41,858 nucleotides of DNA from an uncultured archaeon (GCA_964354805.1 CAYHBD010000047.1:1-41858); one strand, 5' to 3'. Shown: positions 689-38,665, counted from the stretch's first letter. Translations and numbers: made by a program. Notes: generated from the letters alone by a model not told the origin.

Positions 689-1411
689 ATGCCTCAACTA
701 AAATCCGCTGAATTTGCTGTTGCCGGGAAATTTCCTGAGCAAAAAGTTACTGCAGTGATTCCGGCATTCAACGAGGAGAAAACCATCGGCAAGGTAATAG
801 CAGAAGCCAAGCCTTTCTGCGATGATGCCATTGTAGCTCTTGCAAAAAAGAGCAGTGACCGTACAGCCAAAATAGCTGCTGCAATGGGGGCCAGAGTAAT
901 AAAAGACAACGGTGGTGGAAAAGGGGATGGCATGCTGTGTGCAATGAAGGAAATCGCAGACGGCATAATTGTTTTTATTGACGCGGACGGTAGTCACATT
1001 CCAAGTGATATACCAAAGCTGGTGAAGCCGATAAAGGCTGGAAAGGCAGATCTTGTCATAGGCAGCAGATTTTTGGGTGGATCGGAGGAACTGCATGGTG
1101 ATTTCAGCAAATTCCTGCGGATGTTTTTCTCAATGTGCATTACCCAGATAATAAATTGGAGGTTTAAGAAGGCACTGGGAGACAGCCAGAATGGTTTTAG
1201 GGCAATCACAGCAAAAGCAGCAAAAAATTTGCAATTAAGGTCAAAGCACACAGAGATAGAAACCGAGATGGTAATGCGCTGCTTTAAGAAGGGCTACAGG
1301 GTTTTGGAGGTTCCTTCGCTTGAGTTGAAAAGGGCATTCGGCAAATCAAACATAAGCCTGGCAAGGCATAGCTGGAGATATGCTTGGGCAGTATTCAGAA
1401 ATCTGTTATGA
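689..1411 (+). CDS. GT2 glycosyltransferase, DPM1-like (polyprenol-phosphate sugar synthase family)
   Basis: VIPAFNEE, GKG, DADGSH DxD motif, LVIGSRF, DSQNGFRA. Confidence 0.9.
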   Translation: MPQLKSAEFAVAGKFPEQKVTAVIPAFNEEKTIGKVIAEAKPFCDDAIVALAKKSSDRTAKIAAAMGARVIKDNGGGKGDGMLCAMKEIADGIIVFIDADGSHIPSDIPKLVKPIKAGKADLVIGSRFLGGSEELHGDFSKFLRMFFSMCITQIINWRFKKALGDSQNGFRAITAKAAKNLQLRSKHTEIETEMVMRCFKKGYRVLEVPSLELKRAFGKSNISLARHSWRYAWAVFRNLL

Positions 1412-1557
1412 GCGCATATTTGGTTTTAATTGTAATTGAATTTGGTGCGTTGGTGTTTTTTTGGGGTTGTTATGGGTGGAAAGTTTGGTATTGGGCATGG
1501 CTGAATTTGGTGCGTTAGAGCTTTTTGGGGGCTGTTATGAGTGCAAAAGTTTTGGTG
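1403..1557 (+). repeat. Degenerate ~65-bp tandem triplication of the GT2/radical SAM junction
   Basis: YTGTTATGRGY at 1403, 1467 and 1532; TGAATTTGGTGCGTT at 1437 and 1502. Confidence 0.75.
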
Positions 1558-2913
1558 TTAAATCCGCCTGCTGAAAAAGCAAGATTCAGCAGGGATGGGC
1601 GTTGCCAAAGCAAAGAGAACGCGTGGCTGGATACTTTTCCGCCAACAGGCATTGCAAGCATTGCAGGCGCAGTAAGGGGGCGGTATGAAACAAAGGTGTT
1701 GGACTGCATTGGAGCCAGAGTTGGTTTTGATGAGTGCATCAAGCAAGCAGTGGAATTCAATCCTGATTTCACTGTAGTTAATACAGCTACCCCCACCATA
1801 GCAAGTGATATGCAGGCAGCAAAGGCAATAAAAGAAAGAACCGGTTCAAAAATCATTGCATTCGGACCTCACATAACCGCCTGTTATAAAGAAATGCTGA
1901 AAGAATTTTCGCAGCTCGATTTCGCTGTTCTCGGCGAACCAGAAACGCCTATACTGAACATACTCGCAGGAAAGCAAAAAGCAAAAGGTGTTGCAACAAG
2001 AAAATTTGATGGCGGAACATGGCAGGAACCTGATTTGGATGCGCTTCCATTTCCAGCATATGATTTGCTGCCCACTTACACATATCCTTTAACCGGGGAA
2101 AAATGGGTGTTTGTAAGAAGCGGCAGGGGCTGCCCTTTCAACTGCAGCTACTGTGTAATGCCTATGATGTGCAACAGGAGCTTGAGATACCATTCGCCTG
2201 ATTACATGATAAAGCAAATTAAATGGCTGGTTAACAGCCTCGGCATCAGGCTTCTTATGCTTTGGGATGAGCTGGCTACTTTTGATAAAAAGAGAATGCT
2301 TAACCTATGTGAAAAAATTGTCAAAGAGGGCCTGCATAAAAAATGCAGGTGGTTCTGCACAACAAGGGTTGACTGTTTTGATGCTGAATTAGCCGAAAAC
2401 ATGAGGAAAGCAGGCTGCGAAATGATTTCATTTGGCATAGAGTCAGGTTGCCAAGCTGTTCTCGACAGAAACAAAAAGGGCATAACAATTGAGCAGGCAC
2501 TGAATGCAGTGAAGGCAGCCAAAAGCAGTGGCATGAAAACAATCGGGCACTTCATAATAGGATTGCCAGGCTCATCTCCAAAAACCGAGCTTGCATCCAT
2601 ACTACTTGCCAAAAAATTAAAGCTAAATTTCGCCCAGTTTTACATTGCAACGCCTTTTCCTGGAAGCGAATTTTACAAGCAGGCGGTCGAAAACAAATGG
2701 CTTGCCAGTGTAGGCTGGAGCCATATTGAGCAGGGCAGTGTTGCTGTATCATATCCTTCCTTTTCCGCAGAGGAAATAGAAAAATGGAAAAACAAAGCAT
2801 ACGCAAGCTTTTACCTCAGACCATACGCTGCCTATTCCCTCTTAAGCAGCATGTCTGTGAAAAAACTATTCTGGCTTCCGAAATATGTGCTGGCTTTCTT
2901 CGGCGGAATGTGA
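1537..2913 (+). CDS. B12-binding-domain radical SAM protein
   Basis: N-terminal LNPP...PPTG, GPH, GEPE cobalamin-domain motifs; RGCPFNCSYC; FGIESG; FIIGLP; ATPFPGS. Confidence 0.9.
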   Translation: MSAKVLVLNPPAEKARFSRDGRCQSKENAWLDTFPPTGIASIAGAVRGRYETKVLDCIGARVGFDECIKQAVEFNPDFTVVNTATPTIASDMQAAKAIKERTGSKIIAFGPHITACYKEMLKEFSQLDFAVLGEPETPILNILAGKQKAKGVATRKFDGGTWQEPDLDALPFPAYDLLPTYTYPLTGEKWVFVRSGRGCPFNCSYCVMPMMCNRSLRYHSPDYMIKQIKWLVNSLGIRLLMLWDELATFDKKRMLNLCEKIVKEGLHKKCRWFCTTRVDCFDAELAENMRKAGCEMISFGIESGCQAVLDRNKKGITIEQALNAVKAAKSSGMKTIGHFIIGLPGSSPKTELASILLAKKLKLNFAQFYIATPFPGSEFYKQAVENKWLASVGWSHIEQGSVAVSYPSFSAEEIEKWKNKAYASFYLRPYAAYSLLSSMSVKKLFWLPKYVLAFFGGM

Positions 2914-37832: not shown

Positions 37833-38038
37833 TTCAGTATTCGCCCTTTTTCCACTATGGTTTAATTTTGAAAGAAATAAAATTCAAGCCCAAAAAGGCA
37901 ATAATTAAAATTCTTAACAGCGTTCTGGCCTATCCCACGCCAATTAATTTTTATGCAAAGTTTTTTCAGCTGTATTGCACGGTCCAATTCCTTTTTTTCA
38001 TTTCAGTTTCCCAAAAGTCTACTGCGCCAGGTTTTTTT

Positions 38039-38665
38039 TCATTCTTTTTGCATGAATTTTTTGGTTTCCTCTTCGCTTAGCTCCCTGATTCCTTTTTTGT
38101 CAATTACCATTACTGAAATTCCTTTTCCGCCGCTGAAAATGTCTCTTTTTGTTCCTGCGCCAATTGCCCTGACAGCAAGCCCGATTCCTTCCTCTTCGCT
38201 CATCCCTTTTTTGTACTGCTGGTCAAGAACAGCCAAAGCTAATTCTGTGCCTGAACCGCTTACTGCATACTTTTCTCTTTTCAGCACGCCACCGCACGGA
38301 GCCACTTCATACAATTCTGCCCCATTGTTCGTGCCGCCCAAAATGAACTGTACAGCATAAGGGTAATACCTCGCTGAATTCAATACATTTGAAAGCAAAG
38401 TAGCCATTGCATTCGGGCTCATTTTTACCTGCCTTTCAATTTCATACAAGTTTGCCTGGCTTCTCAAAAACCTTATTAGAACCAGGCTGTCGCCGACACT
38501 GCCTGCGTTCGTTAAAGCAATCTCTTCTGTTATTTTGTACAGCTTCTTGCTTTCCTCATCATAAGCAAGGTGCCCCATGCTTGCCCGCATGTCCGCAGCC
38601 AAAACAACGGCATCTTTCGCAATCAACCCAACAGTAGTAGTGCCCGTTTTTAACTCGTGTTCCAT
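38039..38665 (-). CDS. psmB: Proteasome beta subunit
   Basis: Propeptide ...KTG|TTTVG, AADMRA, AGSVGD, GSG, RD..SG. Confidence 0.95.
   Translation of the reverse strand: MEHELKTGTTTVGLIAKDAVVLAADMRASMGHLAYDEESKKLYKITEEIALTNAGSVGDSLVLIRFLRSQANLYEIERQVKMSPNAMATLLSNVLNSARYYPYAVQFILGGTNNGAELYEVAPCGGVLKREKYAVSGSGTELALAVLDQQYKKGMSEEEGIGLAVRAIGAGTKRDIFSGGKGISVMVIDKKGIRELSEEETKKFMQKE

Follow-up and report, generated by a model that had tools for sequence, protein, structure and literature searches.

Duplications of 5–108 bp that are rad27/FEN1-dependent were reportedly described in yeast by Tishkoff et al. in 1997, and Achaz, Rocha, and co-workers are said to have found, in about 2002, an excess of direct repeats with short spacers in prokaryotes, ascribing it to local duplication followed by divergence and deletion. 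To our knowledge, the latter work describes no systematic pile-up of repeats on the first or last codons of genes. CRISPR-like repeat–spacer units were reportedly shown by Nivala et al. in 2018 to be produced by off-target Cas1–Cas2 integration. Gene ends can also be displaced, as is done by integrases that target the 3′ ends of tRNA genes. Likewise, WHO homing elements at the yeast FBA1 gene replace the 3′ end of the gene and leave the old end downstream (Coughlan et al. 2020, PMC7282813). Microhomology-mediated tandem duplications (MTD) arise de novo in archaea, are mostly neutral, and are depleted from coding DNA; in yeast without the flap endonuclease Rad27/FEN1, they rise 7–10-fold (Wei et al. 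2026, PNAS, PMC13167724). The subject of the present analysis is a 41,858-bp stretch of DNA, hereafter the window, in which a number of genes are accompanied by an echo, i.e., a degenerate second copy of their first or last codons lying close to the resident tip. Literature searches for a named phenomenon of gene-tip echoes returned nothing specific.

The window is the entire contig C47 of genome bin G000, which comprises 1.38 Mb in 49 contigs at 44% G+C and whose completeness is rated 88.5%. Judging from the database names of close homologues, the host appears to belong to the Diapherotrites/Iainarchaeota, i.e., to the DPANN archaea. The echoes in this genome are probably the decayed remains of short head-to-tail duplications, ~30–85 bp and mostly ~50 bp in length, which have survived across gene borders. 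They would be a rich example of a known mutational process, unusually dense and seemingly the product of a burst, and not a new gene-end replacement system.

Short-range repeats across the genome

In the genome-wide self-comparison, a near repeat was defined as at least 20 matches in 24 nt at an offset of 25–200 bp, with offsets near 1 kb and 3 kb serving as controls. Short-range direct repeats numbered 204, against 23 and 7 at the two control offsets, and their spacing peaks at 40–60 bp; inverted repeats showed no matching excess genome-wide. The density of repeats is uniform across the large contigs. A gene border is touched by 75 of the 204 repeats, while 50 are intergenic and 74 intragenic, the latter being in frame in 68 cases. 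Non-coding DNA is touched by 125 of the 204, though it makes up only ~15% of the genome. At gene borders, the offset modulo 3 is distributed as 23/20/17, that is, without frame preference. A 3′ echo accompanies ~59 genes and a 5′ echo ~26, and in 60 of the 66 3′ cases the echo lies outside the gene.

A position scan free of hit selection gave the same picture. Downstream echoes were sought for 24-nt windows ending at a stop codon, with reversed windows as controls; 26 genes have such an echo, there were none in the controls, and the count drops on either side of the stop-ending window. The scan 5′ of genes revealed two distinct peaks, one in the promoter region (~-44) and the other at the first codons. 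It had been claimed in the original prediction, made from the window alone, that echoes recur at gene starts and ends, and both the self-comparison and the scan bear this out. TATA-like direct repeats of 24–27 nt, 39–66 bp apart and with unequal spacers, were observed 5′ of genes in the window (2922–3106) and at C30:73820, C42:3736, and C10:19340; these TATA-containing upstream repeats may be spare promoters, and it is they that make up the separate scan peak at ~-44 from start codons.

A true head-to-tail structure is visible in part of the set (1437/1502 in the window; C2:7191, C28:74932, C35:24192, C30:32102, and C43:11806 elsewhere). In most pairs, only 25–30 nt of the ~50-nt period can still be aligned, and a unit length equal to the offset is clear in a minority. 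Tandem Repeats Finder (TRF) detected 44 arrays with a period of 28–90, which lie outside genes.

Replication slippage or faulty joining of Okazaki fragments would produce such duplications anywhere in the genome, and those within a gene would disrupt it unless their length preserves the reading frame. A duplication across a stop or start codon would leave the gene whole and add a spare untranslated tip outside it, and border-straddling duplications would persist for this reason. The spare copy would then mutate freely, while the real tip is kept by selection on the protein, so that the coding-derived part of the unit would remain recognisable longest; the remainder, collecting substitutions and indels in both copies, would turn into a seemingly unique spacer. 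We infer this mechanism from anatomy only. Duplication was one of two origins offered in the original prediction, and it is favoured by the excess of short-range repeats, the frame filter within genes, the outward position of the echoes, and the fit of a simulation (see below).

For a metagenome bin of 49 contigs, with an excess peculiar to this one assembly, an artefact of assembly has to be considered, e.g., strain variants stitched in series. Such an origin is hardly credible. The copies differ by 10–30% plus indels, far beyond co-assembled strains, and unrelated DNA lies between them; moreover, they obey the rules of gene frames (intragenic copies keep the frame, and border copies lie beyond the gene), and their decay is that of old sequence. 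We know of no assembler error that would yield such a pattern.

Age, anatomy, and decay of the copies

The identity of whole units reaches 0.86 at most, and it is at least 0.9 in 0 of 126 pairs. Non-coding TRF arrays of the same period range are 70–89% matched, with one exception, and none of the 49 local pairs having an exact run of at least 16 nt is a perfect tandem. Young-looking pairs (30/32, 27/27, 31/31) are about as frequent as the lucky tail of a population of ~80% identity. At steady state, young events should not be outnumbered by old ones, so the process has either largely stopped after a past burst or its young copies are hidden; as an alternative to the burst, young copies may persist as minority variants masked by consensus assembly. 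Nearly all events would then date from one past episode in the lineage if the burst is accepted.

With the same pipeline, border and intergenic repeats amount to 74 per Mb here versus 13.5 per Mb in a pooled 741 kb of DNA from seven relatives within the family and order (some of the samples being small), i.e., the density is ~5 times that of related genomes; in E. coli, 0 such repeats were found in 50 kb. The echo behind the phosphoglycerate kinase (PGK) gene of the window is absent behind PGK in all 11 relatives examined. The nearest searchable genomes belong to other genera (PGK protein identity ~70%), and within the genome itself no useful paralogous empty sites were found.

A lineage-specific defect in the processing of Okazaki fragments or mismatches was tried as a cause and rejected: FEN1 is intact, and genes for RNase HII, NucS, and RecJ/GAN-like proteins are present. 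The FEN1 gene itself (C10:44168, L074/L072) bears a 3′ echo of its PCNA-binding-like segment QSRLSQWG, the echo reading QSRLDQGG. The C-terminal QSRLSQWG is common to this FEN1 and that of the relative G010.

The recognisable core of an echo pair has a median of 27 nt within a period of ~53 nt, ranges from 13 to 54 nt, and tends to end at the stop codon. The spacers are 2–94 nt long and contain no gene. Their base composition is that of the coding sense strand (T 0.23, G 0.26), while the DNA past the echo is ordinary and downstream-like. Partners of the spacers were mostly undetected in the flanks of the pair, in the gene's own upstream sequence, and in the rest of the genome. To see what decay would do to tandem units, ~52-bp duplications were placed randomly across the real stop codons of the genome, aged by indels and by substitutions, the latter under constraint in the coding part of the resident copy, and run through the same detection pipeline; old events are those with 0.15–0.45 substitutions per site. 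The simulated old events and the observed pairs compare as follows:

Core median: simulated 26–27 nt, observed 27 nt
Cores of at least 45 nt: simulated 9–10%, observed 8%
Spacer median: simulated 24–25 nt, observed 33 nt
Mean z of spacer versus flanks: simulated 1.1–1.5, observed 1.05 / 1.44
Spacer T content: simulated 0.25–0.26, observed 0.23
Boundaries more than 10 nt past the stop: simulated 25–26%, observed 24%

Within this model, old tandem units would suffice for most, not all, of the anatomy of cores and spacers. The purine-rich spacer is explained in the simulation because the pairs still detectable mostly had units of largely coding DNA. A steady supply of new duplications was rejected: simulated in this way, the cores had a median of 42 and were long in 45% of cases, and the spacers had a median of 5; in addition, the data include no young pair. 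Only 11–16% of events of the fitted age were detected in the simulation; with such a rate, itself dependent on assumed parameters, the 59 detected 3′ echoes could stand for several hundred events among ~920 genes. The suggestion of the original prediction that much of the intergenic DNA is built from echoes probably holds for a good share of it, on the strength of this extrapolation.

Other origins of the spacers were tried and discarded. A long duplication trimmed by deletions does not suit spacers that are unlike the gene's own upstream coding DNA. Against a mobile element, matches elsewhere stay at chance level for 50 of 51 spacers, two cases of a dispersed hairpin aside, and there is no excess of structure. 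Templated filler copied from nearby DNA or from the opposite strand is represented by a slight forward excess only, with no reverse excess. For ex-coding DNA in the frame of the echo, a weak signal (14 stops versus 25 and 21, and a better codon score) faded on trimming the 9 nt beside the core, where the best-frame counts became 12:9:8. Finally, the echo is not distinguished as a promoter or ribosome site of the next gene: the co-directional to convergent ratio is 43:16 versus a background of 630:286, and the distances to the next gene are broad.

The dispersed hairpin just mentioned, AAGCCTTTTTTGC-N4-GCAAAAAAGCCTTGGGAAAA, occurs in ~60 copies genome-wide, those of the window lying at 16386–16486, 26126–26171, and 28125–28226. 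Another small hairpin, whose loop is GAA/TTC (gcaattgcttcgcaattgc), often comes after it, and the sites of the dispersed repeat include intergenic DNA, the inside of tRNA genes, and, apparently in frame, the start of the open reading frame at 16379. At C16:22976-23095, the last 21 nt of a tRNA gene, from the T-loop to the 3′ end, are repeated exactly 99 bp away, with two hairpin elements between the copies and a T-rich tract after the outer copy. This is an echo of a non-coding gene end, and it resembles an attachment-site scar.

The hairpin is relevant to a different view of the spacers, namely insertion with a long target duplication. Here, filler or a tiny mobile hairpin would enter a staggered break, and fill-in of a ~25–30-nt overhang would duplicate the flank, giving copy, spacer, and copy from birth. 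That most spacers have no detectable partner would be expected, as would the differing spacer lengths within three-copy arrays, and two of the best-preserved pairs, C16:22976 (tRNA 3′ end, 21/21) and C16:23248 (27/27), hold the dispersed hairpin beside a gene tip. However, decay alone yields unique-looking spacers of the observed length and composition in the simulation; structure in the spacers does not exceed that of controls (mean z −0.6 versus −0.2), and, bar two cases, the spacers are not repeated elsewhere. Moreover, the ~60 hairpin copies have no obvious flanking duplication on inspection, the duplicated length is not fixed (13–54 nt), and searches of the 88.5%-complete genome returned no match to Cas1, Ku, or reverse transcriptase. 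An origin of this kind is therefore rather improbable, and the decay of tandem units is preferred.

The differences between echo and resident tip carry information of another sort. In the aligned cores genome-wide, they fall on codon positions 1/2/3 as 39/20/41, and 71 of 100 are transitions, all kinds of differences being present. The changed codons are synonymous in 34 cases and non-synonymous in 46 (42% synonymous); in the pairs of the window, read by eye from the alignments, the figures are ~6 and ~10. Random change with the observed transition bias is expected to give 30% synonymous codons, and a decaying echo beside a constrained resident end would give ~37% by a rough estimate. Some echoes contain in-frame stops, and many of the changes are non-conservative. 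The original prediction had noted that the differences are often synonymous, which is true of the 34 codons and of seven pairs that differ purely in this way, but not of the 46 others; its conclusion that both copies were once coding is not supported as a general rule, given the closeness of 42% to the two expectations, the stops, and the absence of a preferred frame.

Several observations weigh against the reading of the echoes as decayed duplications. The synonymous share is heterogeneous among pairs (P=0.0008), which simple decay does not predict, and seven pairs are purely synonymous (cdc6 7/7, two with 3/3, and four with 2/2). Stop codons of the echoes were changed to another stop in 14 cases versus 9 changes to a non-stop. 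Cores ending at −4 to +1 of the stop make up 39% of those observed versus 22–23% of those simulated, with a hand-calculated chi-square P of ~0.003–0.03. Of 33 spacers, only 6 clearly resemble the sequence that follows the echo and 3 the coding sequence that precedes the resident tip, counts at the low end of the simulated range. The rates used in the simulation were assumed and not estimated from the data. The microhomology arms, a hallmark of the proposed mechanism, are unreadable, all unit identities being 86% or lower and the borders eroded. Finally, no cause of a burst was found among FEN1, RNase HII, NucS, and the RecJ/GAN-like genes, all of which are present.

Part of these points would be better explained by the import of alleles or terminal replacement, where one copy is the functional end from a related strain, or where the resident gene was later swapped and the echo preserves its earlier allele as a fossil, so that the differences arose while both were coding. 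The heterogeneous synonymous share with its seven purely synonymous pairs, and the 14 stop-to-stop changes against 9 losses, are in line with this, and so is the surplus of stop-ending cores over the simulation, which is expected if the likeness of donor and recipient was limited to coding DNA. The DNA after the echo is normal and downstream-like while the spacer is not, which also fits. In the cdc6-like gene at C9:147846, the 3′ echo is 14 codons long; 8 bases differ, spread over 7 codons, and every change is synonymous (KKLRAVLEKELMGE and a stop in both copies). No other single pair argues as strongly for two coding alleles. In the valS echo, two of the four echo-specific residues (R and Q) occur in homologues, namely in two of them.

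On the other hand, the overall synonymous share of 42% falls to only ~22%, a neutral-like value, without the seven purely synonymous pairs, and the stops and radical changes in the echoes do not suit coding alleles. The other two echo-specific residues of valS occur in no homologue. When echo and resident end were compared with relatives, valS was ambiguous as to which of them matches better, and the phosphoglucomutase homologues at 95% identity carry the resident end. The PGK echo copies only the last ~36–42 nt of the gene, and the DNA before it bears no trace of YLSGKELPG, a PGK segment conserved in relatives. Long exact matches (27/27, 31/31, and the tRNA end at 21/21) suit a copy of the gene itself over a donor diverged by 10–20%, and the tight spacing of 40–60 bp is not explained. 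As to the machinery of the terminal-replacement system proposed in the original prediction, searches of the 88.5%-complete genome gave no match to Cas1, reverse transcriptase (RVT_1), or Ku, and no element encoding an integrase or endonuclease lies between or beside the copies; tyrosine recombinases are limited to two in the genome (contigs C45 and C10), and no recombinase is found beside any echo locus. Import or replacement is unlikely as the general origin of the echoes. A later allele swap or import is possibly the best account of the purely synonymous pairs, limited to this minority.

A more far-reaching version of the duplication reading can be offered tentatively, and we would not lean towards it in full. 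According to this version, a single past episode of ~50-bp tandem duplication struck a large share of the gene borders and built much of the intergenic DNA, including spare promoters and upstream mini-frames, through a passing fault in lagging-strand processing or a bottleneck that fixed slightly harmful insertions. The echoes would be dated fossils of former gene ends, and the synonymous-only pairs such as cdc6 would mark later allele swaps.

Echo pairs of the window

The repeats considered in the window are listed below; coordinates are those of the whole window, and identities refer to the aligned parts.

1437–1482 / 1502–1547, plus strand: 5′ echo of a B12/radical-SAM gene (Pfam), a 65-nt head-to-tail duplication (46 nt, 85%)
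2922–3106, plus strand: promoter-like repeats, a 27-nt unit present three times (2922, 2961, 3010), plus 3027/3085
4107–4141 (resident 4168–4202), minus strand: 3′ echo of gene 4168–5346, 28/35 identical (35 nt, 80%)
6839–6862 (resident 6787–6810), plus strand: 3′ echo of phosphoglucomutase, 19/20, with 17 nt exact
9768–9803 (resident 9696–9731), plus strand: 3′ echo of PGK (36 nt, 83%)
10804–10914, plus strand: overlapping weak repeats (72–76%) at the border of an Fe-S subunit gene (end 10829) and the next gene (start 10869), candidate
11741–11773, plus strand: suggested 5′ echo of a hydrogenase small-subunit-like gene (start 11776), 15/19, P=0.008 per comparison
21031–21081 (resident 21083–21108), plus strand: 5′ echo of geranylgeranyl reductase, 26/29 (26 nt, 88%)
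22283–22312 (resident 22231–22273), plus strand: 3′ echo of geranylgeranyl reductase, 27/31 with indels, between convergent genes
27166–27199 (gene end 27113–27146), plus strand: candidate 3′ echo of a wyosine-synthesis gene (34 nt, 71%), A-rich and of low identity
31932–31965 (resident 31872–31905), plus strand: 3′ echo of a 1272-aa gene, offset 60, 26/34 (34 nt, 76%)
35892–35944, minus strand: claimed 3′ echo of an FttA-like gene, 10/11, P=0.06, not significant and too short
37826–38010, minus strand: claimed 5′ echo, 16 nt (TTTTCATTTCAGT...) shared exactly by two start regions at a distance of 169 bp, P=0.001 per comparison

Nine of these pairs had been named in the original prediction, and each was aligned and scored against 2000 random 45-mers of the genome. 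Six lie far beyond chance. For five of them (4107/4168, 6787/6839, 22231/22283, 31872/31932, and 21031/21083), no random 45-mer equalled the score; for the sixth, 9701/9773, which is 27/31 identical, 1 of the 2000 draws did (P=0.0005), and the null maximum of 45, a full-length match, is taken as a random draw hitting the locus itself. Among the other three, 37826/37995 is marginal once the search space is allowed for, 11741/11776 taken alone is only suggestive, and 35892/35930 did not reach significance. The window proved to be richer than first described, with the pair 1437/1502 and the repeats at 2922–3106 in addition, as well as the candidates at 10804–10914 and 27113/27199.

The unit of the pair 1437/1502 takes in the DNA ahead of the B12/radical-SAM gene together with its ATG and ~8 initial codons, and the copy lying farther upstream is the echo. 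At 2922–3106, there are three to five promoter-like copies, all with a TTTAAAT TATA-like box, 5′ of the gene that starts at 3128; the spacers between the copies are unequal in length. The echo at 4107–4141 lies between convergent genes and differs from its resident tip mostly non-synonymously (GLNVFRFFMA and SLKAFEFFMA, each followed by a stop). The phosphoglucomutase echo, at an offset of 52, is out of frame with the gene, and its stop is TAA where the gene has TGA; weaker similarity extends upstream of this pair with a 3-nt indel. The PGK echo has an offset of 72 and also ends in TAA, the gene in TAG. As stated in the original prediction, GKEWRNG and a stop are encoded by both copies of the phosphoglucomutase pair, and GLQALQK and a stop by both copies of the PGK pair.

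Two of the 5′ echoes form small reading frames. The one at 11741–11773 is a 10-codon mini-frame (MSEKAKGSGC and a stop) that ends 2 nt short of the real ATG, and the one at 21031–21081 is a 16-codon mini-frame (MQQFDVIFVDFFGGRF and a stop) that ends 1 nt short of it. Both are situated in operons, each beginning at the site of a former start codon beside the stop of the upstream gene, and their spacers carry a purine-rich stretch resembling a ribosome site.

Mini-frames that stop 1–2 nt before an ATG would permit re-initiation of translation, and it could be supposed that echoes are functional, either as regulatory upstream frames of this kind or as spare ends for ribosomes that have read through or shifted frame. 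For the set as a whole this is very doubtful. The 3′ echoes have no frame preference and contain stops and indels, the PGK echo is not conserved in relatives, and decay is continuous down to the detection limit. An open in-frame extension, i.e., programmed read-through or an alternative C-terminus, was not found, the frames being 23/20/17 and stops occurring both within the copies and in the DNA that separates them; the even spread of offsets over the three frames makes the echoes unusable for read-through.

The genes of the window are archaeal and include, by Pfam, an FttA-type termination factor, the proteasome, wyosine synthesis, geranylgeranyl reductase, a [NiFe] hydrogenase operon, and glycolytic enzymes. 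The four-gene operon at 9819–13827 resembles a cytoplasmic (sulfhydrogenase-type) [NiFe] hydrogenase and adjoins the genes of GAPDH, PGK, and phosphoglucomutase in this 1.4-Mb DPANN genome. Elsewhere in the bin, the short contigs C12 and C19 have a G+C of 0.61 and C14 and C24 of ~0.30, the remainder being at 0.43–0.45; these four off-composition contigs may be foreign to the organism.

Meaning and comparison with known systems

If the duplication reading is right, this genome offers an unusually clear view of how intergenic spacers originate in a very compact genome: instead of coming from mobile elements or imported DNA, they would stem from the genes' own duplicated tips, filtered by the integrity of the gene. 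When a gene end and non-coding DNA close by match in a synonymous-looking way, this is no proof that the second copy ever coded. The burst-type ages and the five-fold excess suggest a datable shift in replication fidelity or population size in one DPANN lineage, and the echoes could serve as fossils for spotting later allele replacement.

Among the described systems that insert or displace gene ends, WHO elements and integrases likewise leave behind, downstream of the functioning gene end, a displaced copy of it. Their own feature is that these ends are derived from different alleles, with mostly synonymous differences, whereas most pairs here are of the neutral type; moreover, these systems carry an endonuclease or integrase gene between the copies and insert hundreds to thousands of bases, while the spacers here are 20–90 nt long and geneless. 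Off-target Cas1–Cas2 units share the geometry of a ~30-nt repeat, a ~30-nt spacer, and a second repeat, but in this genome Cas1 had no match, the repeat length is variable (13–54 nt), and the composition of the spacer follows the sense strand of the gene. A diversity-generating retroelement differs in three respects: there was no RVT_1 match, the mismatches are not adenine-specific (71 of 100 are transitions, all kinds being present), and the repeats are ~30 nt long instead of at least 100 nt.

The echoes come closer to the close direct repeats described by Achaz, Rocha, and co-workers, with which they share the excess of direct repeats with short spacers; the pile-up on first and last codons sets them apart, as far as that work is known to us. 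The closest likeness is to MTD and slippage duplications. The echoes are tens of bases long, head-to-tail, direct and not inverted, and within the size range of such duplications; as with MTD, they are depleted from coding DNA, and the survivors are in frame (68/74) or outside genes (125/204). Unlike MTD, the copies here are all old and their arms unreadable, with a density ~5 times that of relatives, a burst-type age structure, and FEN1 and its partners intact.

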